The position numbers were made by a program, and so were the translations under genes. This document shows positions 2,183 through 63,235 of a DNA stretch of 64,000 bases, in pieces. The notes below the pieces were generated by a model. The model was not told the DNA's origin. It was given only the letters and a program-made list of their open reading frames with translations, and did not search any database. Each line of letters begins with the position of its first letter. The stretch's first letter is position 1. This stretch comes from Peptococcia bacterium (GTDB lineage Bacteria > Bacillota > Peptococcia > DRI-13 > DTU073), in assembly GCA_050951605.1 (NCBI GenBank), contig JBMNJJ010000009.1:66361-130360 (forward strand), given 5' to 3'.

Positions 2183-3457
2183 ATGTGTAGTGGGAATGAA
2201 GATGGGGAGGTAATTGTTTTGAGTTTTAATGGAACTGCAGCCTATCAATTAAAGAGAGCTATTGAGTTATTAAAATTAAATGATGAAACAGCGAAAGCCC
2301 TTTTAGAGCCGAGAAGGTCTTTAGAGGTGACTTTTTCTGTGAGAATGGATGATGGAAGCGTTAGAGTATTTAAAGGTTATCGAGTACAGCATACTGATGT
2401 CATGGGACCCGCTAAAGGTGGTATACGTTTTCATCCTAATGTAGATTTAGACGAAGTTAAGGCATTGGCAACTTTAATGAGTATTAAATGTTCAGTAATC
2501 GGCTTGCCTTATGGTGGAGGCAAAGGTGGCGTTACAGTTAATACGAAAGAGTTATCAGAAGGCGAATTAGAGAGAGTAAGTAGGGGCTATGTACGCGCTA
2601 TTGCTCAATTTGTTTCTTCGGATAAAGATGTTCCGGCACCGGATATGTATACGAATGCTAAAATTATGGCGTGGATGGTAGATGAGTTTTCTACGATTAA
2701 ACAATGTAATGATTTCGGTTTTATCACTGGGAAACCATTAAGCATAGGTGGTTCTGTGGGAAGAAATGCGGCTACGGCCCGCGGAGGTTTTTTTGTAACT
2801 AAAGCAGCTTGTGAAAAAGAAGGTTTTTCTTTAAAAAAAGCGAGAATAGCTATTCACGGCTTTGGTAATGTGGGTGGTAATGCGGCGAGAATTTTTGCAG
2901 CAGAAGGTAGTAAAGTTGTGGCGATTGCTGATTCGAAAACGGCTATTTATGATGCGCAAGGAATTGATGTGGAATTAGCGCATAAAATTAAAGCGGAAAC
3001 GGGTACTTTAGAAGATTATCTCAAGGGACAAAAGATAGCTCCCGATGAATTGTTTAAGTGTGAATGTGATATTTTAGTTCCGGCTTCGATGGAAGAAGTA
3101 CTGACCAAGGATAATGCTCATTTAGTTAAGGCGAAGTTAATTGCCGAGTTAGCTAATGGTCCAACGACACCAGAAGCAGATGAAATATTAGCTGAAAAGG
3201 GAGTAACAATCTTACCTGATATTTTGACTAATGCTGGCGGGGTTACGGTAAGTTATTTTGAATGGATTCAAAATAGGATGGGCTATTACTGGACTGCGGA
3301 AGAAGTTGAAGAAAAGTTGGAAAAGTTAATGTATAAAGCATATGAAGATATTTATAAATTCAAACGGGAAAATAATTGTCAGGATTATCGTTTAGCTGCT
3401 TTTGCTATTGCTACAAAGAGAATTGTTCAGGCCATGAGAGACCGGGGCTGGATTTAA
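2183..3457 (+). CDS. Glutamate dehydrogenase (Glu/Leu/Phe/Val dehydrogenase family)
   Basis: Motifs GPAKGGIRFHP, GLPYGGGKGG and the NAD-binding GFGNVGG. The likely true start is TTG 2219, behind the GGGGAGG RBS. Confidence 0.93.
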   Translation: MCSGNEDGEVIVLSFNGTAAYQLKRAIELLKLNDETAKALLEPRRSLEVTFSVRMDDGSVRVFKGYRVQHTDVMGPAKGGIRFHPNVDLDEVKALATLMSIKCSVIGLPYGGGKGGVTVNTKELSEGELERVSRGYVRAIAQFVSSDKDVPAPDMYTNAKIMAWMVDEFSTIKQCNDFGFITGKPLSIGGSVGRNAATARGGFFVTKAACEKEGFSLKKARIAIHGFGNVGGNAARIFAAEGSKVVAIADSKTAIYDAQGIDVELAHKIKAETGTLEDYLKGQKIAPDELFKCECDILVPASMEEVLTKDNAHLVKAKLIAELANGPTTPEADEILAEKGVTILPDILTNAGGVTVSYFEWIQNRMGYYWTAEEVEEKLEKLMYKAYEDIYKFKRENNCQDYRLAAFAIATKRIVQAMRDRGWI

Positions 3458-7187: not shown

Positions 7188-8612
7188 TTAAAAGTAAAAG
7201 TCTCTTTCGCCGTTCTCCAGTCTCTGGAGATATTTTTTTGTCTCTTCTCGGGTAGCTTCTTTAGGTATGCTTTGCAGAGCTTGGGCGATTGTTTGGGCGC
7301 CGATTTCTTTGAGTTCATCGTCTGCATAGTCGAGAAGGAATTCTTTAAAGGTTAGGATGGCATTGGGGAGGCAAACATTATGAATCTCTCCGGCTTTAGC
7401 TAGGGGCATAAATCTTTCGCCTGTGCGACCTTGACGGTAGCAGGCCGTACAGTAACTAGGAATATAGCCTGAATTACAAAGCCCTTTTAATATTTCCATA
7501 GGTGAACGATGGTCTCCTACTTCAAATTGGGGGGTGTCTTGGGGAGTGTCACTTTCGTATTCTTCTTTGTAACCGCCTACACCTGTGCAAGAACCAGCAC
7601 TAACTTGAGAAATTCCCAGGGCAATTATTTCATCCCTAAATTGTGATTCTTCCCTTGTGGAAATGATCATTCCGGTGTAGGGAACGGTTAGTCTCAAGAT
7701 CGCTACAATTTTCTTAAAGTCAGCATCGGTAACAAGATGGGGGAAAGTTTGTAGATTAATGCTGGAGGCGGCTCTTAATCTGGGTACGGAAATGGTGTGT
7801 GGACCTACTCCATAAACACTATCTAGGTGTTCGGCATGCATAATCATGGCAATGGTATCGTATTTATGGTCATAAAGTCCATAAAGAACACCAATACCGA
7901 CATCATCAATCCCGGCTTGTAGAGCTCTGTCCATGGCGGTAGTATGCCATTCGTAGTTGTGTTTAGGACCTTGAGGATGAAGTCTTTCATAAGTGGGTTG
8001 ATGATATGTTTCTTGAAAAAGAACATAAGTCCCTATTTCCGCTGCTTTTAGTTTACGATAATTTTCTACAGTAGTAGCGGCAATATTAACGTTGATTCTG
8101 CGAATAGAGCCATTATCAAATTTTAAGGAATAGATTGTTTTGATACATTCGATGATGTAGTCGAGAGGACAATTAAGGTCATCTTCACCTGCTTCGAGAG
8201 CCAACCTTTTATGACCTAGGGATTCGAGGATACGTACTTCATCTTTTAATTCTTCCATTGTTAATTTTTTTCTGACAAGGTTTTTATTACTGCGATGATA
8301 ACCACAATAAGCACAATTGTTAACACAGTAGTTACTTACATAGAGAGGAGCAAAAAGGACGATCCGCTTGCCATAGATTTTTTCTTTAATATATTTTGCT
8401 GTTTTAAACATTTCTTGCAGTATTTCTTTATCGGTAATGTGAAGAAGTACAGCTGCTTCTCTGTGAGTGAGTCCTTTCGCTTTTTTGGCCTTAGCTAATA
8501 GTTCTTGCACATATGTTTTATCTTGTGCCTTTTCTTTACCAAATTCGAGAGATGCTAGGATTTCCGCATCATTAATAAATTCCGCAGCTTTGTAATTTTT
8601 AAATTCTTTCAT
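7188..8612 (-). CDS. hydG: [FeFe]-hydrogenase maturase HydG (radical SAM tyrosine lyase)
   Basis: 474 aa; radical SAM CVNNCAYCGY; ThiH-like core; C-terminal auxiliary-cluster motif CTACYRQGRTGERF. Confidence 0.92.
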   Translation of the reverse strand: MKEFKNYKAAEFINDAEILASLEFGKEKAQDKTYVQELLAKAKKAKGLTHREAAVLLHITDKEILQEMFKTAKYIKEKIYGKRIVLFAPLYVSNYCVNNCAYCGYHRSNKNLVRKKLTMEELKDEVRILESLGHKRLALEAGEDDLNCPLDYIIECIKTIYSLKFDNGSIRRINVNIAATTVENYRKLKAAEIGTYVLFQETYHQPTYERLHPQGPKHNYEWHTTAMDRALQAGIDDVGIGVLYGLYDHKYDTIAMIMHAEHLDSVYGVGPHTISVPRLRAASSINLQTFPHLVTDADFKKIVAILRLTVPYTGMIISTREESQFRDEIIALGISQVSAGSCTGVGGYKEEYESDTPQDTPQFEVGDHRSPMEILKGLCNSGYIPSYCTACYRQGRTGERFMPLAKAGEIHNVCLPNAILTFKEFLLDYADDELKEIGAQTIAQALQSIPKEATREETKKYLQRLENGERDFYF

Positions 8613-9881: not shown

Positions 9882-10018
9882 GCTTAATTAATGATATGAT
9901 ATTATTTAATTAGAGTTTTACCATTTTTAGGAGGGATTTGGAGAGTGATGTGGAAATAATTATAGACAATAGAATAATATAGAATTAAATAATTTGAACC
10001 GGAGAAAGGGGTCTTTTT

Positions 10019-13281: not shown

Positions 13282-14904
13282 ATGATAATTACCATAGCAC
13301 AATTAAATCCTGTTGTCGGGGCGATAGAAAAAAACTTAGAAGTGATGAAGAAAATTTTGCAGGAACAGAATCGAAAGGGGTCAGAACTACTTGTTTTCCC
13401 GGAACTTTTTTTAGTAGGTTATCCTCCTTTGGCTCTTTTAAAGAAGGCTTGGTTTATTCAAAAAGCGCAAGAAGCGGTAGAGGAGTTGCGTGCTTTTTCG
13501 CAGAGTTTTCCTCAAACAGGTTTGTTATTCGGTGCTCCGCGTATAGTAAAAAAGGTGCAAGGAGAAAGCTTATCTAATTCTGCTGTACTAATTTGTGGTG
13601 GAAAGATTCTTTTCGAACAGGCAAAAACTGTTCTTCCCTGTTATGACCTCTTTGATGAGAAACGGTATTTTACACCAGCTACAAAAATGGAGACAGTGAA
13701 TTTTCATGGTGAAAAATTAGGTATCTTGCTTGGCGAAGATGCATGGTTAGAGACGACTTCAGGAGACCTTGTAGAAAAATTAAAAAGAAAAGGGGCGACG
13801 CTATTAATTAATCTGGCGGCCTTTCCTTTTTATAGAGGCTCGGAGAAAATTATTTATAGTACATTTAGGGAACATGCTCAGAAGCACAAGCTTCCATTAG
13901 TTTATGTGAATCAAGTAGGGGCAAATGATGAACTTGTTTTTGCCGGAAAGAGTTTTTGCTTGGAGCGTGAGGGACAGCCACTCGCTGTTTTGGCACCCTT
14001 TCAAGAACAGGTTTTAACACTTAATACACAAGAACAAGGTCCTCTAGAAAAATATTGCTTACAGGAGGAAGTAGAGTCTGTATACGAGGCTTTGGTGTTA
14101 GGAATTAAGGATTATTTTCAAAAGACTGGTTTTCAAAAGGCCCTGATTGGTCTTTCCGGAGGGATTGATTCGGCTTTAGTTTGTGCGCTCGCTGTAGCTG
14201 CTTTAGGTAAAGAAAACGTTGTAGGAATTTCGTTACCTTCACCTTTTTCTTCTCCGGGTAGTGTGGAGGACTCTCGTCAGTTAGCACAAAACTTGGGCAT
14301 TAATTTTAAAGTTATTTCTATTTCCGGGATTTATGAAAAATATTTAGAGACACTACAAGAGTACTTTGTGGATAGACCTAACGACCTTACTGAAGAAAAT
14401 ATACAGGCTCGTATTCGTGGTAATCTTTTAATGGCTTTTGCTAATAAATTTGGTTATCTTCTACTTACTACCGGCAATAAGAGTGAGCTGGCGGTAGGCT
14501 ATTGTACTTTGTATGGTGATATGAGTGGAGGGCTGGGTGTAATTTCTGATGTGCCGAAAACAATGGTCTATCAATTGTCTCATTATCTTAATCGGGAGAA
14601 GGAAATTATTCCTGTAAGTACGATCGAAAAGGCACCTTCAGCGGAATTAAGACCTGAACAAAAGGATGAAGATACTTTGCCTCCTTATGAAATTTTAGAC
14701 CAGTTATTGTTTCTTTATCTCGAGGGGGATTATTCCTCGGAAGAATTGATACAGGAAGGTTTTGCAGTGGAAACAGTAGAGTGGGTAGTAAAAACTGTAG
14801 CGAGAAATGAATACAAAAGGAGACAGACCGTACCGGGGCTTAAGGTTAATACTAAGCCTGAGGCGATGGAGCCAAGAATGCCACTTACTGCACAATATTA
14901 TTAA
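13282..14904 (+). CDS. nadE: Glutamine-dependent NAD+ synthetase
   Basis: N-terminal CN-hydrolase domain (FPELFLVGYP) plus a C-terminal PP-loop synthetase (GLSGGIDSA). Confidence 0.92.
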   Translation: MIITIAQLNPVVGAIEKNLEVMKKILQEQNRKGSELLVFPELFLVGYPPLALLKKAWFIQKAQEAVEELRAFSQSFPQTGLLFGAPRIVKKVQGESLSNSAVLICGGKILFEQAKTVLPCYDLFDEKRYFTPATKMETVNFHGEKLGILLGEDAWLETTSGDLVEKLKRKGATLLINLAAFPFYRGSEKIIYSTFREHAQKHKLPLVYVNQVGANDELVFAGKSFCLEREGQPLAVLAPFQEQVLTLNTQEQGPLEKYCLQEEVESVYEALVLGIKDYFQKTGFQKALIGLSGGIDSALVCALAVAALGKENVVGISLPSPFSSPGSVEDSRQLAQNLGINFKVISISGIYEKYLETLQEYFVDRPNDLTEENIQARIRGNLLMAFANKFGYLLLTTGNKSELAVGYCTLYGDMSGGLGVISDVPKTMVYQLSHYLNREKEIIPVSTIEKAPSAELRPEQKDEDTLPPYEILDQLLFLYLEGDYSSEELIQEGFAVETVEWVVKTVARNEYKRRQTVPGLKVNTKPEAMEPRMPLTAQYY

Positions 14905-53987: not shown

Positions 53988-54068
53988 ATAGCTGAGGTTG
54001 TTTTCTGAAAACAATATAAGTGATATAATTAAAAGAAAACAAACTACAATTTGGAGGGCACATCCAAT

Positions 54069-55526
54069 ATGGTATGGGTTAAAAAAACTGTCTACATAAT
54101 TTTAATTATTATACTTTTAGTCTCTTTATATGGTGTTTTCAAACCACTTCCACAGGGACTTTCTTGGGAAGGAGAGCTTTTTGATGAGGCTAATGTGAAG
54201 TTTATTTATGACCTTACTTATGAACAAGAGGGACAGATTGTTCATCAACAGAATATTTTTCGAAAGGCTTTACAGATAATTGATGAAGCGGAAGATTTTA
54301 TTGTTCTGGATATGTTTTTATTTAATGATACTTATGACCGAAAATATGAATTTCCACAGTTAACGTCTACTTTGACCAACACACTTGTGCAGAAAAAAAG
54401 AGAGAACCCGGATGTGCAAATTGCTTTGCTTACTGATGAGATTAATACTTTTTACGGTTGTTATTTTCCTCAACATCTTGAAGAATTGAAAGAAAAGGGG
54501 ATTGAAGTAATTATTACTGATTTAAATGCTTTGCGAGATTCAAATCCTTTTTATTCCGGTTTGTGGAATACATTTATTCGTTGGTCCGGGACTAAGGGAA
54601 AAGGTTGGCTTCCTAATGCTTTTAGCCCACAGGCACCTAAAGTAACTGCCCGGGCTTATCTAAAAATGTTTAATTTCAAAGCAAATCACAGAAAAGTATT
54701 AGTTACCGAAAAGAAGGCTTTATTGACATCGGCTAATTTTCATGATGCTAGTGCTTTCCATTCTAATATTGCTTTTGTAGTAGAGGGGGAAATTATTGGG
54801 GATATTCTAGCTTCGGAAAAAGCAGTGGCAGCTTTTAGTGGTGTCGAACTTCCCCTGGTTTATACAGACGAACAAGCTAAAAATGATGAAAAGATGAAAA
54901 AGCTTATCAGTCCGGCTTTGCGAGATAGTTCACCCCAAGTGGAAGTTTGTTTATTAACTGAAGGTAAGATTAAAAAACATTTGTTAGAGGCAATAAAAAA
55001 GACGGAACAAGGAGATTCTATTTGGGCAGGGATGTTTTATCTTTCTGATCGTAAGGTAGTTAAGGAATTGTTAAAAGCATCTTGGCGAGGAGTAGAGGTT
55101 CGTTTAGTTTTAGACCCCAATAAAGATGCTTTTGGTTTTGAAAAAATTGGAATTCCGAATAGACCGGTAGCTGATGAGCTGGTTAAAGAGTCTGAAGAGA
55201 AAATAAAGATTAGGTGGTATAAGACACGTGGAGAGCAATATCATACGAAGCTTGTTTTTATTAAAGGAAGGGGAAAAAGTGTCATTATTGGTGGCTCAGC
55301 TAATTTAACGAAAAGAAATATTGATAATTATAATTTGGAGTCTAATTTAAAGATTGTCGCTGATAATGAAAGTATGATTGTGAAAGACCTGGAAAATTAT
55401 TTTCAGCGGATTTGGAATAATACAAGAGGGCTTTATACTGTGGATTTAGAAGAATATCGGGATCAGTCTTTTGCTAAAAGATTTTTGTATCTTTTCCAGG
55501 AATGGAGCGGATTTTCAACGGTTTAG
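54069..55526 (+). CDS. Phospholipase D / cardiolipin synthase-like protein (two HKD motifs), N-terminal TM
   Basis: NHRKVLVTEKKALLTSANF and YHTKLVFIKGRGKSVIIGGSANLTKRN. Confidence 0.8.
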   Translation: MVWVKKTVYIILIIILLVSLYGVFKPLPQGLSWEGELFDEANVKFIYDLTYEQEGQIVHQQNIFRKALQIIDEAEDFIVLDMFLFNDTYDRKYEFPQLTSTLTNTLVQKKRENPDVQIALLTDEINTFYGCYFPQHLEELKEKGIEVIITDLNALRDSNPFYSGLWNTFIRWSGTKGKGWLPNAFSPQAPKVTARAYLKMFNFKANHRKVLVTEKKALLTSANFHDASAFHSNIAFVVEGEIIGDILASEKAVAAFSGVELPLVYTDEQAKNDEKMKKLISPALRDSSPQVEVCLLTEGKIKKHLLEAIKKTEQGDSIWAGMFYLSDRKVVKELLKASWRGVEVRLVLDPNKDAFGFEKIGIPNRPVADELVKESEEKIKIRWYKTRGEQYHTKLVFIKGRGKSVIIGGSANLTKRNIDNYNLESNLKIVADNESMIVKDLENYFQRIWNNTRGLYTVDLEEYRDQSFAKRFLYLFQEWSGFSTV

Positions 55527-55532
55527 CAGTTG

Positions 55533-55561
55533 TTGACATATGACCATTATAGAGGTATGCT
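55533..55561 (+). promoter_or_regulatory. Promoter with CATATG-core site upstream of the mrp-like gene
   Basis: TTGACATATGACC: the -35 TTGACA overlaps CATATG, and TATGCT lies 17 nt downstream. Confidence 0.5.
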
Positions 55562-55612
55562 AAATGAAGCAATGGATAAATTAATTCGTCTAATTATTTG
55601 AGGAGGCATAAA

Positions 55613-56428
55613 ATGACTGAACAAAATAGTGCTTGCAGTAATTGTAGTAGTAAAGGTAGTGAAAGTTGTTCTTCGTGTAGTGAAGGGAAAAATGGTCATC
55701 AGCTTAATGAGGTTAAACATGTTTTGGCAGTAATGAGTGGGAAAGGTGGGGTCGGTAAATCAACGGTAGCAGCTCTATTAGCGGTAGCTTTGCAAAAAAA
55801 AGGCTATCAGGTAGGAATTTTAGATGCTGATATTACAGGACCTAGTATTCCTAAGCTTTTTGGTTTAAAAAAAGCACCTGATGTTACGGAATTAGGTATC
55901 TTTCCGGTGAAAAGCAAAACAGGGATTGCCATTATGTCTATTAATTTATTATTAGAACATGAAGATGACCCGGTAATTTGGCGTGGACCGGTAATTGCGG
56001 GGGTAATTAAGCAATTCTGGGAAGAAGTTATTTGGGGGAACTTAGATTACTTGATTGTAGATTTACCTCCTGGAACAGGGGATGCTCCTCTTACGGTAAT
56101 GCAGTCTTTACCACTTGAGGGTGCGGTTGTTGTCACTTCACCACAAGACTTAGCTGGTATGGTGGTGAAAAAAGCTATTAAAATGGCACAAAAGATGGAG
56201 GTCCCTTTGTTAGGGATTGTAGAAAATATGAGTTATTTAGTATGTCCGGATTGTGGGAAAAAACTTTATCCTTTTGGGGAAGGAAAAACAAAGTTAATGG
56301 CACAGGAGTTTGCTCTTCCCTTTATGGGAGTACTTCCTTTAGAACCTTCAACGAGTAGTTTGGGGGATCAGGGAAAAATTGAGGAAGCGACCAGTTATGA
56401 ATTACTGAAGATAGATTTACTAGTGTAG
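55613..56428 (+). CDS. Mrp/NBP35 (ApbC) family Fe-S cluster carrier ATPase
   Basis: Cys-rich N-terminus (CSNCSS...CSSCSE), deviant Walker A SGKGGVGKST, and the CPDCGKK motif. Confidence 0.88.
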   Translation: MTEQNSACSNCSSKGSESCSSCSEGKNGHQLNEVKHVLAVMSGKGGVGKSTVAALLAVALQKKGYQVGILDADITGPSIPKLFGLKKAPDVTELGIFPVKSKTGIAIMSINLLLEHEDDPVIWRGPVIAGVIKQFWEEVIWGNLDYLIVDLPPGTGDAPLTVMQSLPLEGAVVVTSPQDLAGMVVKKAIKMAQKMEVPLLGIVENMSYLVCPDCGKKLYPFGEGKTKLMAQEFALPFMGVLPLEPSTSSLGDQGKIEEATSYELLKIDLLV

Positions 56429-56462
56429 AGGAGAAATATAAAGGTGGAGGGAGTTGAGAGGT

Positions 56463-56867
56463 ATGGCCAGACCACCTAAACTGCGCAGAGTAGAATTTAA
56501 GCCTGAGTTTACTTATTTTAAGCCTGCGGGGATCCCTAAACGTGAGCTGGAAGAAGTTGTCTTACATGTTGAAGAAGTAGAAGCGATACGGCTTAAAGAT
56601 TTGGAAGATTTAGAGCAAGAGGCATGTGCTGAAAGAATGCATATATCGCGACCAACTTTTCAAAGATTATTGGTTAGTGCGCGTAAGAAAATTGCAGAAG
56701 CACTTATTGAAGGAAAAGCCTTACGGGTTGAAGGGGGAAATTATCGTTTAGCCAAGCGTCATTTTCGTTGTGTTACTTGCCAAAAAGAATTAGATGTGCC
56801 CCATGGTCAAGGGCGAGGTTGGGAATTGTCTTGCCCACATTGTGGAGGTTCGGTTCGTAGAATTTAA
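56463..56867 (+). CDS. DUF134 (UPF0251) putative DNA-binding protein with C-terminal zinc ribbon
   Basis: MARPPKLRRVEFKPEFTYFKPAGIP, an HTH-like LEQEACAERMHISRPTFQRLL, and C-terminal CVTCQ...CPHCGG. Confidence 0.8.
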   Translation: MARPPKLRRVEFKPEFTYFKPAGIPKRELEEVVLHVEEVEAIRLKDLEDLEQEACAERMHISRPTFQRLLVSARKKIAEALIEGKALRVEGGNYRLAKRHFRCVTCQKELDVPHGQGRGWELSCPHCGGSVRRI

Positions 56868-56889
56868 TTAAGAAATTTAAAAGGATAAC

Positions 56890-56924
56890 AAAAGCTGTCA
56901 ACTCATCACGAGCTGACAGCTTTT
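56890..56924. terminator. Bidirectional terminator
   Basis: aaaagctgtca / tgacagctttt 11-bp stem between convergent genes. Confidence 0.85.
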
Positions 56925-56940
56925 ATTGTCTTTGTTTTAA

Positions 56941-57279
56941 TTAATGGTCACAGACATTATCGCCTGTTTGTAAAGTGCCCTGAAGGTAGCGGTGGACAAT
57001 ATTTTCCGGACTATCAATGGGAGCACCTGTAATTACTTTGATTCCTTGTTCTTGGAAAAGGTTTTGTGCCCGTCCGCCCATACCTCCGGCAATAACGAGG
57101 TCGACATCTTGCTTTTTAATCCAGGTGGGTAAAATTCCTGGTTCATGAGGAGGTGGGGTAAGCAGCTCTTTCTTTATTATTTTTTTTTCCACCTCATCAA
57201 CTTCAAGGAAAGCGAAAGTTTCACAGTGACCGAAATGCATACTTAATTGATTCTCGGCAAGTGGTAAAGCAATTTTCAT
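56941..57279 (-). CDS. NifB/NifX-family (dinitrogenase FeMo-cofactor biosynthesis domain) protein
   Basis: 112 aa; MKIALPLAEN...HFGHCETFAF...VIAGGMGGRA. Confidence 0.8.
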   Translation of the reverse strand: MKIALPLAENQLSMHFGHCETFAFLEVDEVEKKIIKKELLTPPPHEPGILPTWIKKQDVDLVIAGGMGGRAQNLFQEQGIKVITGAPIDSPENIVHRYLQGTLQTGDNVCDH

Positions 57280-57315
57280 TTTTTCCTTCCTCCTTGTGTT
57301 TAAATTTTAATGAGT

Positions 57316-58182
57316 TCATATTTTAAGGTATTCTTTTAGTTTTTGTGCCATCATTTTAATTTCTTGAGCGACTAGACTTTGAGGATTAAACTCAATAATA
57401 TTTTGCCCAGCAATTTGGGCTTTAGTAATTTCTTCATCATAGGGGATTTGCCCAATGATTTTTATGCCTAATTCAGTACAGTGGTCAATTGTTTCTTTAA
57501 CTTGACGTGGGTTTAAATCTGCCTTATTGATACAGACAAAAGTTTGAACTTGAAAATGTTGCGCTAGTTGGATAACTCTTTCTAAGTCATGAAGTCCGGA
57601 AAGAGTAGGTTCGGTGATAATTAAGACAGACTTTGCTCCGGCAAGAGAAGCGATAACCGGACAGCCAATCCCGGGTGGACCATCGATGAGAATGAGAGGT
57701 AAATTTTCTTTTTGTGCTTTTTGTCGCGCTCTATTTCTTACTTCAGCCACTAATTTCCCTGAGTTTTCTTCACCTGTACCTAAACGGGCATGAATCATCG
57801 GTCCACATGAGGTGGTAGAGACAAAGAGATAACCGGCCATATTTTCCTGCATTTCGATGGCCTTTTGAGGACAGAAATAAGCGCAGACACCACAACCTTC
57901 ACAGGAAATTTTATCGATAATAAAGTTTTCTTGTATAGCTTTAAAGCGGCATAAGTCAAGACATTGTCCACATTCTATACATTTTTCCGGATGTAAAAAA
58001 GCAGTTTTGCCACTCCAAAACTCTTTTTTTTCTAAGATAGTAGGGTGTAAAAGTAAGTGCAGGTCAGCTGCATCGACATCACAATCAGCTAAAACTTTAT
58101 CTTGAAATATTTGCGCCAGCGAGGCGACAATACTTGTTTTACCAGTACCTCCTTTACCACTGAGGACAATTAGTTCTTGCAT
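57316..58182 (-). CDS. MinD/ParA-type P-loop ATPase with inserted 2x[4Fe-4S] ferredoxin domain (COG1149-like)
   Basis: LSGKGGTGKTS, with CIECGQCLDLC and CEGCGVCAYFCP. Start moved to ATG 58182, behind AGGAGGTG. Confidence 0.85.
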   Translation of the reverse strand: MQELIVLSGKGGTGKTSIVASLAQIFQDKVLADCDVDAADLHLLLHPTILEKKEFWSGKTAFLHPEKCIECGQCLDLCRFKAIQENFIIDKISCEGCGVCAYFCPQKAIEMQENMAGYLFVSTTSCGPMIHARLGTGEENSGKLVAEVRNRARQKAQKENLPLILIDGPPGIGCPVIASLAGAKSVLIITEPTLSGLHDLERVIQLAQHFQVQTFVCINKADLNPRQVKETIDHCTELGIKIIGQIPYDEEITKAQIAGQNIIEFNPQSLVAQEIKMMAQKLKEYLKI

Positions 58183-59030
58183 GAGGAAATCACCTCCTGA
58201 ATGTAGGACCAAAGTGGAGCAAAGTTTTTTTCATATTGCGGGAATTTTTTTAGAAGTAATTCCCCTTCAGAATAGGCGATGGCAATATTTCGTTCATGAG
58301 GGATTTCCAAGATGATCGGAATATTTTCTCGGGCACAGTAATCTTTTAAAGCGGAGTTGCCAAGTGTAGAACGATTGATGCCTACAGCAAAAGGAATTTT
58401 TAAGTCCCTTACTACTTCGACAGCTAATTTTAAATCATGGAGACCAAAGGGGGTAGGTTCTGTAATTAAAAGAACGAAGTCACTTCCTTTTAGAGCTTCA
58501 ATTACCGGGCAGGAAGTACCGGGAGGGCAATCGACAATAATTAAATCTTCTTGTGTGGCTTGTTCTTTTACTTTTCTAATTAAGGGTGGGGACATGGGTT
58601 CTCCAATTTTTAAATATCCGTGGATAATTTGTAAATTGTCTTGTGCCCCAATTTTAATTTCACCCAGTTCTTTTTCGACCTCTATAATGGCTTTAGTAGG
58701 GCAAACAAGAGTACAACCGCCACAACTGTGGCAGAGTTCAGGAAAAACCAGGACGTTATCTTTAAGGCAAGAAATCGCCCCGAATTGACAGAGGTCGCTA
58801 CACTTGCCACAATAGGTACATTGCTCTAAGTTAATTGAGGGAATTTTGGCAGTTGCTTTTTGGGATGAATGCCAAGTAGGCTTAAGAAACAAATGACAAT
58901 TAGGTTCTTCTACATCACAGTCAAGTAAAACTATTTTCTTTTTCATTTGTTTTTGCCAAAAATAAGCAAGATTAGTAGCAATAGTTGTTTTACCCGTACC
59001 GCCTTTTCCGCTGGCAATAGCTATTTGCAT
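58170..59030 (-). CDS. MinD/ParA-type P-loop ATPase with inserted ferredoxin domain (paralog)
   Basis: ASGKGGTGKTT, with CTYCGKCSDLC and CHSCGGCTLVCP; overlaps the downstream paralog by 13 nt. Confidence 0.85.
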   Translation of the reverse strand: MQIAIASGKGGTGKTTIATNLAYFWQKQMKKKIVLLDCDVEEPNCHLFLKPTWHSSQKATAKIPSINLEQCTYCGKCSDLCQFGAISCLKDNVLVFPELCHSCGGCTLVCPTKAIIEVEKELGEIKIGAQDNLQIIHGYLKIGEPMSPPLIRKVKEQATQEDLIIVDCPPGTSCPVIEALKGSDFVLLITEPTPFGLHDLKLAVEVVRDLKIPFAVGINRSTLGNSALKDYCARENIPIILEIPHERNIAIAYSEGELLLKKFPQYEKNFAPLWSYIQEVISSCKN

Positions 59031-59082
59031 TAAAATAACACCTCCACAATGTTTAGTAATAGGCTAGTCCGTTTTTTGCTGC

Positions 59083-59445
59083 TTAGAGCCAATGACCTTC
59101 GACATTGCTATCCTGAGCTTCTGGTAATAATCCCTTTTTATATTGTTCCAGGGCTTCGCGTACAGTAATGCCTGTCGCTAGATAAACTTTTATCTTACCG
59201 GCATTTAGTGTACGAAAAGCTTTTGGACCAACATTTCCTGTGATGACTACATCTGCTTTGGCATTAATGATGTTTTGGGCAGTTTGGATACCGGCTCCTT
59301 GTGGAGCAGTACGATTTTGTTTGTTGTCAAATAAACTATAGGTGTTTTTTTCAAGGTCATAAAGAAGAAATTGGCTAGTGCGACCGAAACGTTCATCAAT
59401 CAGGCTATCTAAACTTTCACCGGTAGTACTGACGGCAATTTTCAT
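59083..59445 (-). CDS. NifB/NifX-family (FeMo-cofactor biosynthesis domain) protein
   Basis: 120 aa; MKIAVSTTGE...RFGRTSQFLLYD...VITGNVGPKA. Confidence 0.8.
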   Translation of the reverse strand: MKIAVSTTGESLDSLIDERFGRTSQFLLYDLEKNTYSLFDNKQNRTAPQGAGIQTAQNIINAKADVVITGNVGPKAFRTLNAGKIKVYLATGITVREALEQYKKGLLPEAQDSNVEGHWL

Positions 59446-59489
59446 TTTAAAATTCCTCCTTTCTAGAACAATTAAATTATAAATATAGT

Positions 59490-59560
59490 GAGCATATGAC
59501 CAAAAATGTTATTGACATATGTTCAGAAATAATATATCATAATAATGGGCATATGTCCAT
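59490..59560. promoter_or_regulatory. Divergent promoter region with three CATATG-core sites
   Basis: GAGCATATGACC (59490-501), TTGACATATGTTC (59512-24, overlapping a plus-strand -35) and the near-palindrome ATGGGCATATGTCCAT (59545-60). On the minus strand, TTGGTC-16-TATAAT overlaps the first site. Confidence 0.55.
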
Positions 59561-59596
59561 AAGGAATAAAAAAATTTAGGAAAGGGGTTGTTGTCA

Positions 59597-59911
59597 ATGC
59601 CAGGTTTTGATGGTACCGGTCCATTAGGTCAAGGTCCGAGAACAGGGAGAGGTTTAGGGTATTGTACTCCGGGGTTGGGTTTTCGTCGTGGTTATGGACG
59701 CGGTTTTGGTCGTGGTTTAGGAAGAGGACGTGGCTATAGAAGAGGTTTTGGCTATGGTTACGGTGTTCCTCAAAGAGATGTAATTGCGGAAAGGCAATAC
59801 TTGGAGGAAAACGTGCTCTACTTAGAGGATTTGAAAGCAGATATTGAAGATGAATTAGCGGAAATTAAAACAATGCTGCAAGAACAGAAAGCTGCCAAGA
59901 GAAAAGAATAA
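59597..59911 (+). CDS. DUF5320-like protein with Arg/Gly-rich repeat and C-terminal coiled coil
   Basis: MPGFDGTGPLGQGPRTGRGLGYC N-terminus, GFRRGYGRGFGRGLGRGRGYRRGFGYGYG, and an acidic coiled coil. ATG at 59597. Confidence 0.7.
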   Translation: MPGFDGTGPLGQGPRTGRGLGYCTPGLGFRRGYGRGFGRGLGRGRGYRRGFGYGYGVPQRDVIAERQYLEENVLYLEDLKADIEDELAEIKTMLQEQKAAKRKE

Positions 59912-59925
59912 TGATTTCTAAGCAG

Positions 59926-59972
59926 AAAGGACTGTTTCATAATTAGAGTGATTATGAGACAGTCCTTTTTTT
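59926..59972. terminator. Bidirectional terminator
   Basis: aaaggactgtttcataat / attatgagacagtccttt 18-nt arms (one G-U pair) followed by a T-run. Confidence 0.85.
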
Positions 59973-60022
59973 ATCTAAAAATAAGCAAAGGATTATTTAA
60001 ATTAATCTTATAGAATATCTTT

Positions 60023-61393
60023 TTAATTAGTTTCTTTGATTAAGGATTTTTTCCATCTGCCGGAGCGGTAATAAAGATAATTAAGGAGAAGTCCGATTAA
60101 AGGGCTGGCAGCTATGCCCATCCAAACTCCTTCGATACCTAAAGCAGGCAGACTGGAGAGATAGGAAGCTAAGGGAACTCTGATTAACCATAGAGAAATA
60201 AGGGTAAAGAGCATGGCAACGAAAGTATCACCAGCTCCACGTAATACTCCTCCGAGGGTAAACATTAGAGCCATAGGAATATAGGCAAAACTTAAGTAAT
60301 ACAGGTAGCGGGAACCTGCGGCAATGACATCGGGGTCAGTAGTAAAAGGAAAGAGAAGCAGATGAGGAATAAACATAGCGGCTAAGGAGGCGATAAGGGT
60401 AATACTTGTGGTGAGCAGTGAGCTCCAGTAAACCGATTCTTGAACTCGTTCATTTTGACCTGCTCCTAAATTTTGGGCGACAAGAGAGGAAACGGCCATA
60501 CCCAGACTCATCGCCGGCATAAAAGCGAATTGGTCAATAGTGGCTCCGGCTCCAAAGCCGGCAACAATAGTACTGCCAAAACGGTTGACTAAAGAACTAA
60601 CAACAAGAGAACTTAGGGAGATAAAGACGTGTTGGAGTCCGGCAGGCAGACCGATTTTAAAGATTAATTTGATAATTGATAAGTCCCAGATCCAAAAATT
60701 CTTTTTGAAGTCAACGAGTCGGGAAGTAAAAAAGAGATATCTTAAGGAAATTAAAGCGGAAATAGCTTGAGCAATAACTGTAGCTAGAGCAGCACCGTTA
60801 GTTTCTAATCTAGGGAAGGGTCCTAGACCAAAGATCAGAAAAGGGTCTAGCAGGAGATTAAAAAAGGTAGCATAAAAAAGGAATTTTAACGGTGTTCGAG
60901 AATCACCTAAACCTCTTAAAATAGCACTAGTGCCATTATAGAGGAACATTCCGAGTAGTCCACTACTGAATATTTTTAAGTAAGAAGAAGCCATTTCGAG
61001 GATATCAGCAGGTACATTAATAAAGAGGAGGATTTGGCGACTAAAAAAGATCCCTAAGAGAGAAACCAGTCCGCCACAGATAATGAGTAAAAACATAGAA
61101 TTACTAATGGTTTTGCTGACCATGTCATTTTTTTTGGCCCCGTAATATTGCCCTACGAGAGTTGTTGTGCCCATTGTAATTCCCATTACAAGAGCAATTA
61201 AGACGAAAATAACAGGAAAACTTACGGAAATAGCGGCAAAAGCTTGATGCCCTAAAAATCTTCCGACCCAGATGCTGTCTACAATATTATAAAGAGCTTG
61301 TAAGACATTGCCTAAGAACATAGGAATAGCGAAGGTGATTAAATGGCGAGGAATACTTCCGGTAGTAAAGTCTGTTGTTTTTTTATTTGGCAT
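60023..61393 (-). CDS. MATE family efflux transporter
   Basis: 456 aa, 12 predicted TM helices, IPMFLGNVLQALYNIVDSIWVG N-terminal signature. Confidence 0.88.
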   Translation of the reverse strand: MPNKKTTDFTTGSIPRHLITFAIPMFLGNVLQALYNIVDSIWVGRFLGHQAFAAISVSFPVIFVLIALVMGITMGTTTLVGQYYGAKKNDMVSKTISNSMFLLIICGGLVSLLGIFFSRQILLFINVPADILEMASSYLKIFSSGLLGMFLYNGTSAILRGLGDSRTPLKFLFYATFFNLLLDPFLIFGLGPFPRLETNGAALATVIAQAISALISLRYLFFTSRLVDFKKNFWIWDLSIIKLIFKIGLPAGLQHVFISLSSLVVSSLVNRFGSTIVAGFGAGATIDQFAFMPAMSLGMAVSSLVAQNLGAGQNERVQESVYWSSLLTTSITLIASLAAMFIPHLLLFPFTTDPDVIAAGSRYLYYLSFAYIPMALMFTLGGVLRGAGDTFVAMLFTLISLWLIRVPLASYLSSLPALGIEGVWMGIAASPLIGLLLNYLYYRSGRWKKSLIKETN

Positions 61394-61574: not shown

Positions 61575-62255
61575 ATGGTCGGAAGGGAAATTTTGAAAAT
61601 AAAAATAGATAATATTAGACCTTTGGGAGATATTGTTTATGAAGCACTTAGAGATGCAATTATCAATCAAGTTTTGAAACCTGGAGAACGGTTGATGGAA
61701 ACTGAATTGGCTGAAGAAATGGGAGTAAGTCGTACTCCGGTGCGTGAAGCGATGCGTAAATTAGAGCTGGAAGGTTATGTAGTGATGGTCCCACGTAAAG
61801 GTGCTTATGTAGCAGGACTTTCAATTAAGGATATCAATAATCTTTTTGAAATTAGGGGTGCTTTAGAAACGTTGGCGGCAGGGCTTGCTGCTTCCAGAGC
61901 TAGTCGGGAAGAAATTGAGGAAATGGAAAGAAATTTAGTTATGGAAGCTAGTCTTTTTGAAACTAGTGATGTGATCAATACGATTGAAGTAGATGCCAAA
62001 TTTCATGAACTTATTTATAGTGCCTCACGGAATACTCGATTGCAAAATATGATTAAAGACCTACGTGACCAAATTCAGCGGTTTAGGACAACGTCATTAG
62101 CTGTTCCGGGGAGGATGAAGTTTGCTTTGGCTGAGCATCGGAGAATCGTGGAGGCTATTGCAGCTGGGGATGTGGAGGAAGCAAGTAGAGCGACAAAGGA
62201 ACATATTGAAAGTGCGGAAAATGCTTTATTAGACGTAATTAGTTATCAAAAATAA
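61575..62255 (+). CDS. GntR family (FadR/FCD subfamily) transcriptional regulator
   Basis: N-terminal wHTH (LKPGERLMETELAEEMGVSRTPVREAMRKLELEG) plus an all-helical FCD domain. Confidence 0.88.
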   Translation: MVGREILKIKIDNIRPLGDIVYEALRDAIINQVLKPGERLMETELAEEMGVSRTPVREAMRKLELEGYVVMVPRKGAYVAGLSIKDINNLFEIRGALETLAAGLAASRASREEIEEMERNLVMEASLFETSDVINTIEVDAKFHELIYSASRNTRLQNMIKDLRDQIQRFRTTSLAVPGRMKFALAEHRRIVEAIAAGDVEEASRATKEHIESAENALLDVISYQK

Positions 62256-62305: not shown

Positions 62306-63235
62306 TTGAAAAAAATTGCACAAAGTTTGACAGAGTTAATTGGGAATACTCCTTTATTAGAATTAGAAAATTTTAGTAGGAAAAATAAATTAAAGAGAGA
62401 TCTTGTGGCTAAATTAGAGTATTTTAATCCTGCGGGAAGTGCGAAGGATCGAGTTGGTTATGCCATGATTAAAGATGCCGAGGAGCGGGGGTTAATTAAG
62501 CCTGGTGCGGTGATTATTGAACCAACTAGTGGCAATACGGGGGTTGGTTTGGCGATGGTAGCGGCAGTAAGGGGATATCGACTTATTTTAACTATGCCGG
62601 AGACGATGAGTTTGGAAAGAAGAAAGTTGCTGTCAGCTTTAGGGGCAGAAATAGTGCTCACTCCGGGACGGGAAGGGATGGCGGGAGCAATTCGTCAGGC
62701 AGAGGAATTAGCTCAGCAAATAAAGGGTTCTTTTATTCCCCAACAGTTTAAAAACCTGGCTAATCCGGAGATACATAAAAAAACCACCGGTATGGAAATC
62801 TGGCGGGATACAGAAGGACAGGTAGATATTTTTGTCGCCAGTGTGGGCACAGGTGGCACTCTCACGGGGGTAGGAGAGGCTTTAAAAGCAAAAAATCCAC
62901 AGGTGCAGATTATTGCCGTGGAGCCTTTTGGTTCTCCCGTTCTTTCCGGGGGCAAACCCGGTTCTCATAAAATTCAAGGGATCGGAGCCGGCTTTATACC
63001 GGAAATCTTAAAACGAGAACTAATTGATGAAGTAGTTACAGTGAAGGATGAAGAAGCGTATGCGGTTTGCCGCAGTCTAGCCAGAGAGGAAGGGCTTTTG
63101 GTAGGGGTATCCTCGGGAGCAGCGGTGAGCGGTGCTTTAAAAATAGCCGCAAGACCGGAAAATCAAGATAAGCTAATTGTGACGTTATTGCCTGATACCG
63201 GAGAAAGGTATTTATCTTCCGATTTATTTGTGTAG
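62306..63235 (+). CDS. cysK: Cysteine synthase A (O-acetylserine sulfhydrylase)
   Basis: NPAGSAKDR (PLP Lys), TSGNTG and GVGTGGT motifs; 309 aa. Confidence 0.93.

Follow-up and report, generated by a model that had tools for sequence, protein, structure and literature searches.

A conserved 20-bp palindrome in an orange-protein-type gene cluster and DUF134 as its candidate autoregulated repressor

The orange-protein (ORP) complex has been studied in Desulfovibrio, where Orp3 and Orp4 of D. vulgaris Hildenborough are MinD-type ATPases with two 4Fe-4S motifs (PMC6345978). The Desulfovibrio orp operons are under the positive control of OrpR, a regulator reported as restricted to the delta-proteobacteria (PMC8359166). 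The ORP cluster of D. vulgaris Hildenborough comprises orp5-orp4-orp3 and orp7-orp8-orp9 and is regulated by OrpR (DVU2106), sigma-54 and IHF. We take its orp7 (DVU2107) to encode a DUF134 protein. Judged from its encoded proteins, the block described here, which lies in a 64-kb stretch of DNA (the window), is an ORP complex-type cluster. The initial annotation had regarded the function of the block as unknown; because clusters of this type have been studied in Desulfovibrio, this is only partly the case.

Genes of the block

The initial assignment of the block as Mrp, DUF134, NifX-like, MinD-ferredoxin and DUF5320 genes was confirmed by Pfam. The genes and terminator-like elements are as follows:
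55613-56428, plus strand: mrp, Mrp/NBP35-type Fe-S carrier ATPase with a Cys/Ser-rich N-terminus (Pfam PF10609, E 3e-96)
56463-56867, plus strand: duf134, DUF134 protein, the candidate regulator (Pfam PF02001, E 4e-27)
56887-56927, no strand assigned: terminator-like hairpin between the convergent duf134 and nifX2 (terminator scan: one minus-strand site, 19-pair stem)
56941-57279, minus strand: nifX2, NifX-like (Nitro_FeMo-Co) protein 2 (Pfam PF02579)
57316-58182, minus strand: MinD/CbiA-type ATPase with a 2x[4Fe-4S] ferredoxin insert, Orp3/Orp4-like (Pfam CbiA, ParA, Fer4)
58170-59030, minus strand: a further such Orp3/Orp4-like MinD/CbiA-type ATPase with a 2x[4Fe-4S] ferredoxin insert (Pfam CbiA, ParA, Fer4)
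59083-59445, minus strand: nifX1, NifX-like protein 1, orange protein (ORP/Orp8) homologue and first gene of the minus-strand operon (structure match 2wfb)
59597-59911, plus strand: duf5320, DUF5320 protein, rich in Gly and Arg in its N-terminal part and coiled-coil-like in its C-terminal part (Pfam PF17253, E 4e-22)
59925-59969, plus strand: terminator-like hairpin 3' of duf5320 (terminator scan)

The mrp start codon (ATG 55613) is preceded by a GAGGAGG ribosome-binding site. MrpORP consists of a P-loop NTPase domain fused to a Di-Nase (Nitro_FeMo-Co) domain. The mrp product is the counterpart of its P-loop domain (NCBIfam MrpORP model positions 1-231, E 7e-102) and the nifX2 product is the separate-gene equivalent of its C-terminal domain (model positions 265-365, E 3e-39); both fall below the 450-bit cut-off of the full-length NCBIfam MrpORP model and come from two separate genes. 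The top solved-structure match of the nifX1 product is the D. gigas ORP (2wfb, E 2.3e-20). From its position, the hairpin between duf134 and nifX2 is read as working in both directions. As in the D. vulgaris cluster, the window contains an Orp8 homologue and two Orp3/Orp4-like ATPases, and its genes form divergent operons with one common control region. Unlike that cluster, it has the two halves of MrpORP split over two genes and adds DUF5320, a very consistent member of the proposed regulon.

A palindrome shared by the promoter regions

The CATATG sites described initially were all found in the window sequence, namely TTGACATATGACC at 55533-55545, GAGCATATGACC at 59490-59501, TTGACATATGTTC at 59512-59524 and ATGGGCATATGTCCAT at 59545-59560. 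These four are putative operators (O1-O4) of one conserved 20-bp palindrome, TTATKRRCATATGYYMATAA; the sites therefore stand, whereas the 6-bp core first taken as the operator gives way to this longer element. Operators and promoters are arranged as follows:
55530-55549, no strand assigned: predicted operator O1, TTGTTGACATATGACCATTA (weight matrix 26.3 bits)
55533-55561, plus strand: sigma-70-type promoter of mrp-duf134, TTGACA (55533-55538), 17-bp spacer, TATGCT (55556-55561) (promoter scan, 10/12 matches)
59476-59503, minus strand: promoter of the nifX1 operon, TTGGTC (59503-59498), 16-bp spacer, TATAAT (59481-59476) (by eye)
59486-59505, no strand assigned: predicted operator O2, TAGTGAGCATATGACCAAAA (22.9 bits; L002 counterpart present)
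59509-59528, no strand assigned: predicted operator O3, TTATTGACATATGTTCAGAA (25.4 bits; L002 counterpart present)
59512-59540, plus strand: sigma-70-type promoter of duf5320, TTGACA, 17-bp spacer, TATCAT (promoter scan, 11/12 matches, best of the region)
59543-59562, no strand assigned: predicted operator O4, TAATGGGCATATGTCCATAA (27.4 bits)

The scores come from a weight matrix of 24 columns that was derived from other genomes; the next-best position in the window reaches 14.2 bits. Over the whole window CATATG is not enriched (15 copies versus 10.6 +/- 3.2 in shuffles); four of the 15 copies sit in the two promoter regions of the block. The clustering of three cores was remarked on from the outset; under uniform placement of 15 sites, three copies inside 57 bp have a P of ~0.001. 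For the extended pattern GNCATATGNNC, 0.72 matches are expected in the window and five were found, all at O1-O4. Several half-sites in the window (ACC, read as GGT) differ from the consensus.

The promoters named for mrp and duf5320 in the initial annotation proved to be the two best sigma-70-like promoters in 55400-60000; the same scan gave an alternative promoter for the nifX1 operon, TGGACA-17-TATATT at 59559-59531. O1, O2 and O3 cover the -35 hexamer and spacer of the predicted promoters of mrp-duf134, nifX1 (the nifX1-minD1-minD2-nifX2 unit) and duf5320, respectively, with the centres of O1 and O3 at about -28 from the inferred transcription start. O4, 34 bp downstream of O3, spans the inferred duf5320 start with its centre at about +5. 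All promoters and transcription starts are predicted and unmapped. In other loci, 34-35 bp is the commonest spacing of paired operator sites, and a TTGACA-like hexamer lies within the operator, with a -10 box 16-18 bp downstream, in 42 site orientations. TTGACA is a promoter-embedded variant of one operator half-site, and in three of the sites in the window it would double as the -35 box.

Phylogenetic footprinting bears out the shared element. In the divergent region of locus L002, whose DUF134 is 68% identical to the window protein, each of the three CATATG sites is retained amid diverged neighbouring sequence; the mrp site of L002, the O1 counterpart TTATTGACGTATGACCATTA, reads CGTATG and scores 25.5 bits. 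Across 1.05 Mb of duf134 loci (80 loci), the matrix found 87 matches compared with 2 in shuffled sequence; 75 of the 87 are intergenic and almost all lie upstream of cluster genes. The frequency of CATATG is 1.70 per kb in the 150 bp preceding cluster genes, where 50 copies were counted and 6.8 expected; the overall figure is 0.22 per kb. Conservation of the flanks extends to +/-10, and a scan with the flanking columns alone returned the CATATG core in 43 of 115 matches. Many conserved sites read ATGAGCATATGCTCAT and lack TTGACA, so that the sites are not, as the initial annotation had cautioned they might be, a mere reflection of TTGACA in an AT-rich context.

The motif is present in Bacillota and Chloroflexota. 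In about 40 loci a site precedes duf134 by 25-75 bp; among these are Dehalococcoidia and loci where tblastn detected no other cluster gene near duf134. After duf134 itself, the most consistent target is DUF5320, which is preceded by an operator in L003, L005, L007, L008, L022, L031, L056, L057, L058, L065 and L074. When metagenome contigs were retrieved by the motif alone, 90 of 120 encoded duf134, which was the first downstream gene on 84 (median distance 38.5 bp); the 75 motif-linked DUF134 proteins compared fall into 74 clusters at 90% identity and are thus non-redundant, and 22 of the 120 contigs have no recognised regulon gene. The operator half-sites are symmetric in 53 of 120 cases, against 19.7 by random pairing, and asymmetric in 67. 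No site of at least 16 bits was found in 34 of the 80 genome loci, including 15 of 15 with the helix SRPTYHRIL, and not every DUF134 therefore uses the CATATG operator. The linkage of the motif to duf134 genes is tight, specific and extends across phyla.

DUF134 as the candidate regulator

The DUF134 protein (95.2 bits against a Pfam cut-off of 27, E 3.7e-27; PF02001 = UPF0251 = COG1342) belongs to a family whose only NCBIfam label is PRK04217, 'hypothetical protein'. Its 134 residues comprise an N-terminal beta region, a DeoR/sigma-70-region-4-like helix-turn-helix whose recognition helix reads SRPTFQRLL, and, at the C-terminus, a zinc ribbon of the Cys4 type. In the AlphaFold2 model (pLDDT 83.8) the helix-turn-helix matches the DNA-bound domain of Bacillus subtilis DeoR (7bhy) with an r.m.s.d. 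of 0.7 Å and 45% identity over 40 residues (Foldseek), and the two are also related by sequence (E 2.7e-5). The match to the NCBIfam DeoR model is confined to positions 9-47 of 311, and Pfam and NCBIfam detect no SorC sugar-phosphate effector-binding domain. The conserved residues Arg62 and Arg67 align with Arg34 and Arg39 of DeoR, which makes base-specific contacts to a TTGAACA operator, with Arg39 contacting G4 (PMC11229326). As a separate matter, DUF134 was rejected as a sigma-70 family sigma factor: Pfam finds no region 2 and only a region-4-like stretch (25.0 versus a cut-off of 25.7 bits).

Differences in the recognition helix of DUF134 are matched by differences at the variable bases of the half-sites. 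Where the position equivalent to residue 67 of the window protein is arginine, operator base -5 is G in 70 of 80 half-sites; where it is not, G is found in 0 of 46 (Fisher 6e-25, with related sequences counted as independent). At least two different non-arginine helix classes show this covariation. By class, PFSR helices go with GAA half-sites, PFQR/xFGR with GAG/GGG, QFGN with TAG/TGG and TVQx with TGA. A simple recognition code (Arg67-G, Asn67-T), if true, would make the DUF134 switch re-engineerable.

The initial proposal, in which DUF134 controls a regulon through an operator common to its promoters, is supported: all computational checks proposed with it gave favourable results, and the motif-only retrieval, the covariation and the DeoR-type helix-turn-helix match add to them. 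From these comparisons, we consider it likely that a DUF134 dimer binds the 20-bp operator and acts as an autoregulated local repressor of the ORP-type metal-cluster genes and duf5320. The helix-turn-helix, of the DeoR/sigma-70-region-4 type, would let the dimer grip the palindrome, Arg67 would read the G at -5, and the presence of the dimer on the operators would exclude RNA polymerase from the three promoters. DUF134 is most likely a repressor because the operators cover the -35/spacer regions of three strong predicted promoters as well as the inferred duf5320 start, the direction of control being read solely from site position relative to predicted promoters. The orange-protein homologue, the two MinD-ferredoxin ATPases, the split MrpORP and duf5320 would be repressed together and, since duf134 lies within the mrp-duf134 operon, DUF134 would repress its own synthesis. 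More speculatively, the state of a metal or Fe-S cluster may relieve or tighten repression, sensed by the Cys4 ribbon of this subfamily or by a NifX-like partner domain. DUF134, an old family of 'unknown function', would thus gain a testable role as local regulator of orange-protein-type genes in anaerobes.

Activation of the three promoters by DUF134, or a combination of activation and repression, through recruitment or stabilization of RNA polymerase at the -35 hexamer or MerR-like remodelling of the spacer, seems unlikely to us. The operator covers the -35 hexamer, which is a binding place of some activators, the nifX1 hexamer TTGGTC is weak and the Desulfovibrio orp operons are positively controlled (PMC8359166). 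However, the mrp and duf5320 promoters, with 10-11 of 12 consensus matches, should fire unaided, the spacers in the window are 16-17 bp compared with 19-20 bp in MerR-type promoters, and a second site across the transcription start (O4) is a typical repressor feature. Furthermore, activator sites are typically centred at -41.5 or -61.5, in contrast to about -28 and +5 here.

Repression by DUF134 also has to be weighed against binding of the palindrome by a factor encoded elsewhere (a SorC/DeoR-type, ArsR-type or other metal or redox regulator), with DUF134 merely among the targets. The TGAAC half-site read by B. subtilis DeoR is similar, and TTTACATATGTTCAA occurs in the DeoR operator, while binding by DUF134 is argued from sequence and structural analogy. 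An unlinked factor would nevertheless not explain why base -5 covaries with the DUF134 residue aligned to a base-contacting arginine of DeoR, and the motif tracks duf134 in two phyla and on the motif-only contigs, even where tblastn finds no other cluster genes. Pfam shows no further DNA-binding domain in the block, in agreement with the early view of DUF134 as its sole candidate, and we judge an external factor very improbable. The cross-genome tests effectively refute the weakest explanation, that the sites arose by chance from TTGACA -35 boxes in AT-rich intergenic sequence or act as a hairpin in DNA or RNA: the lack of window-wide CATATG enrichment, the -35-like hexamer inside or abutting three of the four sites and the excess of symmetric half-sites would suit it, but conserved sites without TTGACA, conserved flanks and the near-absence of shuffled matches do not, the asymmetric sites would break a hairpin, and O1-O3 lie upstream of the inferred transcription start and would thus be absent from RNA.

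Comparison with known regulators

DUF134 resembles DeoR, a SorC-family protein, in its helix-turn-helix, in which both base-contacting arginines are kept. The DeoR operator of dra-nupC-pdp consists, by eye, of inverted TGAAC-type half-sites with a G 5.5 bp from the dyad, like the DUF134 operator, and gives no score on the DUF134 weight matrix. DeoR is a repressor that partly overlaps its promoter and uses two adjacent half-operators, to which the proposed repression by DUF134 can be likened. Unlike DeoR, DUF134 lacks the SorC sugar-phosphate effector domain and has its own N-terminal beta region and, in the subfamily of the window, a Cys4 ribbon; it would act on metallocluster genes, and DeoR acts on genes of nucleoside catabolism.

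In its regulatory logic, the system recalls IscR, NsrR and RirA (Rrf2 family), SufR and the Fur-family boxes, in which autoregulated repressors act at a palindromic operator over promoters of cluster biogenesis. Like such Fe-S or metal repressors, DUF134 possibly senses a metal cluster through cysteines; it is unrelated to them in fold and family, and its operator, an even 10+10 palindrome with a CATATG centre, differs from theirs in sequence and geometry. Fusions of DUF134 to a Nitro_FeMo-Co domain occur in L092, L101, L119, L122, L131 and L168, each preceded by an operator (Pfam confirms three of the six), and these NifX-like fusions point to a bound metal cluster as the signal. Of 81 motif-linked loci, 19 encode a NifX/ORP-type domain next to duf134. 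Among the DUF134 proteins linked to the motif, about half have no Cys4 ribbon, so that the ribbon cannot be the universal sensor, and most have no cysteine preceding the helix-turn-helix. A tentative reading, which we hold to be possible though rather less than even in likelihood, is that DUF134 with a NifX/ORP-type domain forms a new metallocluster-sensing transcription switch, the ancestral ORP regulator, replaced by OrpR and sigma-54 in the delta-proteobacteria. The cluster-binding domain would be fused, encoded next door or, as in the window, replaced by the Cys4 ribbon, and would inform the DNA-binding domain about the redox state or the occupancy of an Fe-S or Mo/Cu-S cluster. If so, synthesis of the ORP machinery and of DUF5320 would be limited to times of need.

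Set against D. vulgaris, Pfam finds no enhancer-binding protein gene in the block and no TGGCA-N7-TTGC (sigma-54) element was seen by eye in its intergenic regions. Where D. vulgaris has upstream OrpR sites and IHF, the window has a 20-bp palindrome at the -35 hexamer of promoters of the sigma-70 type. With OrpR reportedly confined to the delta-proteobacteria, the DUF134 operator would therefore be a regulatory solution used elsewhere.

Genes, operators and promoters of the block

The gene content that the initial annotation had ascribed to the block at 55533-59911 was borne out by Pfam, which identified an Mrp/NBP35-type ATPase (mrp), DUF134 (duf134), which combines a zinc ribbon with a helix-turn-helix like that of sigma-70 region 4, two Nitro_FeMo-Co (NifX-like) proteins (nifX1 and nifX2), two MinD/CbiA ATPases with 4Fe-4S ferredoxin inserts (minD1 and minD2) and DUF5320 (duf5320). 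DUF134 is the sole DNA-binding domain encoded in the block, as had been noted.

All four CATATG sites previously picked out at the promoters of these genes were found exactly where they had been placed. The hexamer shows no enrichment across the window (15 copies versus 10.6 ± 3.2 in shuffled sequences); four of the 15 copies fall in the two promoter regions of the block. Clustering of three copies had been remarked on earlier; they lie within 57 bp, for which the probability is ~0.001 if 15 sites are placed at random. The pattern GNCATATGNNC gave five matches in the window against 0.72 expected, all confined to the four sites. Alignment of the CATATG sites upstream of cluster genes in other genomes showed that the proposed CATATG-core operator is indeed a shared site, but that its real unit is not 6 bp in extent but a 20-bp palindrome, TTATKRRCATATGYYMATAA, as in ATTATGAGCATATGCTCATAAT from Dehalococcoidia and TTATTGACATATGTCAATAA from Bacillota. 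The four sites score 26.3, 22.9, 25.4 and 27.4 bits with the final matrix; the next-best position in the window (14.2 bits, at 14426) was rejected because it has no CATATG core.

Operators (O1-O4, predicted to bind DUF134), promoters, terminators and flanking genes in the window
55530-55549, operator O1, before mrp-duf134
59486-59505, operator O2, before nifX1
59509-59528, operator O3, at duf5320
59543-59562, operator O4, at duf5320
55533-55561, + strand, predicted mrp-duf134 promoter, TTGACA-17-TATGCT (promoter scan)
59512-59540, + strand, predicted duf5320 promoter, TTGACA-17-TATCAT (promoter scan)
59503-59476, minus strand, nifX1 operon promoter, TTGGTC-16-TATAAT (by eye)
59559-59531, alternative nifX1 operon promoter, TGGACA-17-TATATT (promoter scan)
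56887-56927, terminator-like hairpin, read as bidirectional (terminator scan)
59925-59969, terminator-like hairpin (terminator scan)
54051-55526, PLD-like (two-HKD-type) protein, whose gene stops 4 bp short of O1
60023-61393, MATE efflux transporter
61575-62255, GntR/FCD regulator
62306-63235, ORF resembling cysteine synthase, by eye only

The two top sigma-70-like promoters found by the scan of 55400-60000 are those of duf5320 and mrp-duf134. The centres of O1-O3 lie at about -28 of the predicted starts, in keeping with their earlier placement at the -35/spacer boundary, and that of O4 at about +5 of the predicted duf5320 start. The two hairpins bound three units, mrp-duf134, nifX1-minD1-minD2-nifX2 and duf5320. 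None of the four flanking genes has an operator, and they appear to be unrelated to the regulon.

Conservation of the palindrome and its link to DUF134

The genome sample comprised 80 loci (1.05 Mb) fetched via the DUF134 alignment, one of which (L001) is a near-identical Clostridia metagenome-assembled genome. The phylogenetic footprinting that the initial annotation had recommended favours the operator: in L002, a locus with the same gene order and a DUF134 68% identical to that of the window, all three CATATG copies of the divergent region are retained in register while the other spacer sequence has diverged, and the mrp site reads TTGACGTATGACC. For the 79 other loci, the density of CATATG is 1.70 per kb within the 150 bp preceding cluster genes, compared with 0.22 per kb overall; these upstream stretches hold 50 copies, against 6.8 expected from local composition. 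Matrix matches of at least 16 bits number 87 in the 80 loci versus two in shuffled sequence; 75 of the 87 are intergenic by a crude ORF call, and most of the apparent exceptions precede duf134, DUF5320 or NifX-like genes missed by that call. When only the flanking columns are used for scanning, CATATG reappears as the core of 43 out of 115 matches, so the core is not an artefact of matrix seeding; CATAAG and CGTATG/CATACG are the commonest variants and CATAGG is rarer.

No site of at least 16 bits is present in 34 of the 80 loci. These include all 15 loci encoding DUF134 paralogues with an SRPTYHRIL recognition helix, mostly from Peptococcaceae or Desulfotomaculum-like organisms, from which the CATATG operator is absent. 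A separate palindromic operator was sought for this clade and none was found, other promoter-like sequence being common to several of those loci. This sequence, GGCAGGAAAAA...TTTGCAATAGAACTATAATACATATATAGTTA, is conserved in L009, L013, L015, L017, L023 and L026 at ~60-130 bp upstream of duf134 (position 8001 or equivalent), and could be either a promoter for an alternative (sporulation?) sigma factor or an operator of another type.

Autoregulation, a reverse test, covariation and structural analogy point to DUF134 as the predicted binder of the palindrome. In ~40 loci, representing two phyla, duf134 is preceded by a site at a distance of 25-75 bp; some of these are loci in which tblastn detects no other cluster gene near duf134. 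In the reverse test, which made no use of the protein, metagenome contigs were searched for the exact pattern TTATKRRCATATGYYMATAA. Of the 120 contigs obtained, 90 carry a gene for a DUF134 homologue and 98 have one or more cluster genes; duf134 is the first downstream gene in 84, where its median distance from the motif centre is 38.5 bp. The motif-linked DUF134 proteins are diverse, falling into 74 clusters at the 90% identity level and into 41 at the 70% level, and in several of the 23 contigs without a recognised nearby gene a divergent DUF134, a DUF5320-like or an ARMT1/DUF89 protein adjoins the motif. Fur/PerR/Zur, Rex and ArsR-type boxes were considered and provisionally set aside, since they differ in symmetry or length and none of the genes of these regulators follows the motif.

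Covariation was assessed for 63 DUF134 proteins adjoining the motif. Where the position of residue 67 of the window protein is Arg, G occupies the outer variable operator position (-5) in 70 of 80 half-sites; where it is not (Asn in SRQTFGN-class proteins, various residues in those of the TVQx class), G occurs in none of 46 half-sites and T in all (Fisher 6e-25, a statistic that ignores kinship between sequences). By helix class, PFSR goes with GAA, PFQR and xFGR with GAG/GGG, QFGN with TAG/TGG and TVQx with TGA.

Proposed regulon, mechanism and signal

Apart from duf134 itself, DUF5320 is the most consistent operator target, followed by the NifX-like and MinD-ferredoxin operons and mrp. Other genes are occasional targets, each preceded by an operator, and all suggest that the regulon deals with metals or metal clusters.

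Occasional operator targets in fetched loci and contigs
L007:8701-10710 (operator at 9891), CDF (cation-diffusion-facilitator, cation-efflux) transporter with a C-terminal NifX-like domain, and divergent DUF364 'heavy-metal chelation' protein
L074:6841-7239, NifU_N/IscU-like scaffold protein
L065:1933-2796, ARMT1/DUF89-like protein
L143, right of motif at 284, ARMT1/DUF89-like protein

DUF5320 (window 59597-59911; also at L005:3770-3988 and in L166, to the left of a motif at 3287), for which NCBIfam has no model, consists of an N-terminal half rich in Gly and Arg (MPGFDGTGPLGQGPRTGRGLG...) and a coiled-coil-like tail, which in some relatives is replaced by a zinc ribbon. Its cationic Gly/Arg tract may be similar to the tail of IssA, a thioferrate-binding protein.

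If DUF134 is the binder, it is probably an autoregulated repressor that would occlude the -35 hexamer together with the spacer; at duf5320 it would also cover the predicted transcription start. The main alternative is that DUF134 is an activator; the positions of the sites, the near-consensus promoters and their normal 16-17 bp spacers favour the repressor. At other loci, 42 site orientations have a TTGACA-like hexamer within the operator and a -10 box 16-18 bp downstream, and the TTGAC half-site is mostly promoter-distal in the motif-only contigs; the TTGACATATG of the initial annotation is thus read as a half-site variant that also serves as a -35 box. The commonest spacing of paired sites, 34-35 bp, is also that of O3 and O4.

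In the DUF134 subfamily of the window, an invariant Cys precedes the helix-turn-helix and there is a CxxC...CPxC ribbon. Neither the Cys4 ribbon nor Cys54 can be a universal sensor, since the ribbon is missing from about half of the motif-linked homologues, and the Cys from most of them. Six motif-preceded single ORFs, three of them confirmed by Pfam, fuse DUF134 to Nitro_FeMo-Co (metagenome contigs, with genes starting just after the motif at L092:9632, L101:3025, L119:7450, L122:31, L131:1319 and L168:1792), and a NifX-like gene directly follows 19 of 81 motif-linked duf134 genes. Together with the absence of ribbon and Cys from many homologues, these fusions and neighbours suggest that a cluster-binding NifX-type domain may be the usual sensory partner of DUF134. 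The fusions often have a His/Cys-rich C-terminal tail, e.g. HHDHEHGEGHTCGEHGCGKHSCH.

Comparison with DeoR and ORP systems

DUF134 has no solved structure. In a structure search only its helix-turn-helix had any match, and no whole-protein analogue was credible (the MCM N-terminal domain reached a TM-score of only ~0.2). The best sequence and fold match of this helix-turn-helix is the DNA-binding domain of Bacillus subtilis DeoR on its operator (PDB entry 7bhy; E = 2.7e-5, r.m.s.d. 0.7 Å, 45% identity over 40 residues). DeoR makes base-specific contacts to 5'-TTGAACA-3', with R39 contacting G4 and T14 and R34 contacting T12 (PMC11229326). By alignment and chain offsets, R34 and R39 correspond to R62 and R67 of DUF134, both invariant in the DUF134 alignment A1. 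The DeoR palindrome (ATTGAACAA/AATTTCAAT) and the DUF134 operator (TATGAACAT/ATGTTCATA), compared by eye, both place TGAAC with its G 5.5 bp from the dyad. Since the R39-G contact aligns and the dyad distance is equal, residue 67 and base -5, which covary, are just those expected to be in contact. In the B. subtilis dra-nupC-pdp DeoR operator (PMC11229326), the right half, TTTACATATGTTCAA, is nearly identical to O3 of the window, TTGACATATGTTCAG. The DeoR operator gives no match above 5 bits with the DUF134 matrix; the resemblance is one of half-site and geometry, not of the full site.

[quoted passage not shown] The best solved-structure match of nifX1 is the Desulfovibrio gigas orange protein (PDB entry 2wfb; E = 2e-20). 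Mrp of the window matches positions 1-231 of the NCBIfam MrpORP model (E = 7e-102) and nifX2 its C-terminal domain (positions 265-365, E = 3e-39), so that MrpORP, a single two-domain protein in Desulfovibrio, is here split into two convergent genes, the P-loop domain being mrp (55613-56428) and the Di-Nase-like domain nifX2 (56941-57279). The two MinD-ferredoxin ATPases are the counterparts of Orp3 and Orp4 as described in PMC6345978. The Mrp of the window has a Cys/Ser-rich N-terminal extension, CSNCSSKGSESCSSCSEGK. In D. vulgaris, orp7 (DVU2107) may encode a DUF134 protein. The D. vulgaris orp5-4-3 and orp7-8-9 operons are divergent; sigma-54, OrpR and IHF activate them, and their expression takes place at low redox potential. 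OrpR is an Fe-S redox sensor reportedly limited to delta-proteobacteria (PMC3897727, PMC8359166). In contrast, the promoters of the window are predicted to be of the sigma-70 type and the block encodes no enhancer-binding protein.

PF02001/DUF134 is an old family, widespread in anaerobic bacteria and metagenomes, without assigned function; its NCBIfam label is 'hypothetical protein', and no paper on the function of DUF134/UPF0251/COG1342/PF02001 or DUF5320 was found in the searchable literature. The family gains a testable role as a predicted sequence-specific DNA-binding regulator, together with an operator of 20 bp, a rule that links a residue to the base recognised, and a putative regulon that ties DUF5320 and metal genes (the CDF-NifX-like fusion, DUF364, NifU/IscU-like and ARMT1/DUF89) to ORP-type metallocluster machinery. 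In any anaerobe, the operator could be used to probe the whole genome for members of the regulon. A helix-turn-helix repressor with a palindromic operator is of a familiar kind; what we propose as new is the function, operator, rule and regulon of an old DUF, which suggest how ORP genes may be controlled outside the delta-proteobacteria, where OrpR is absent.
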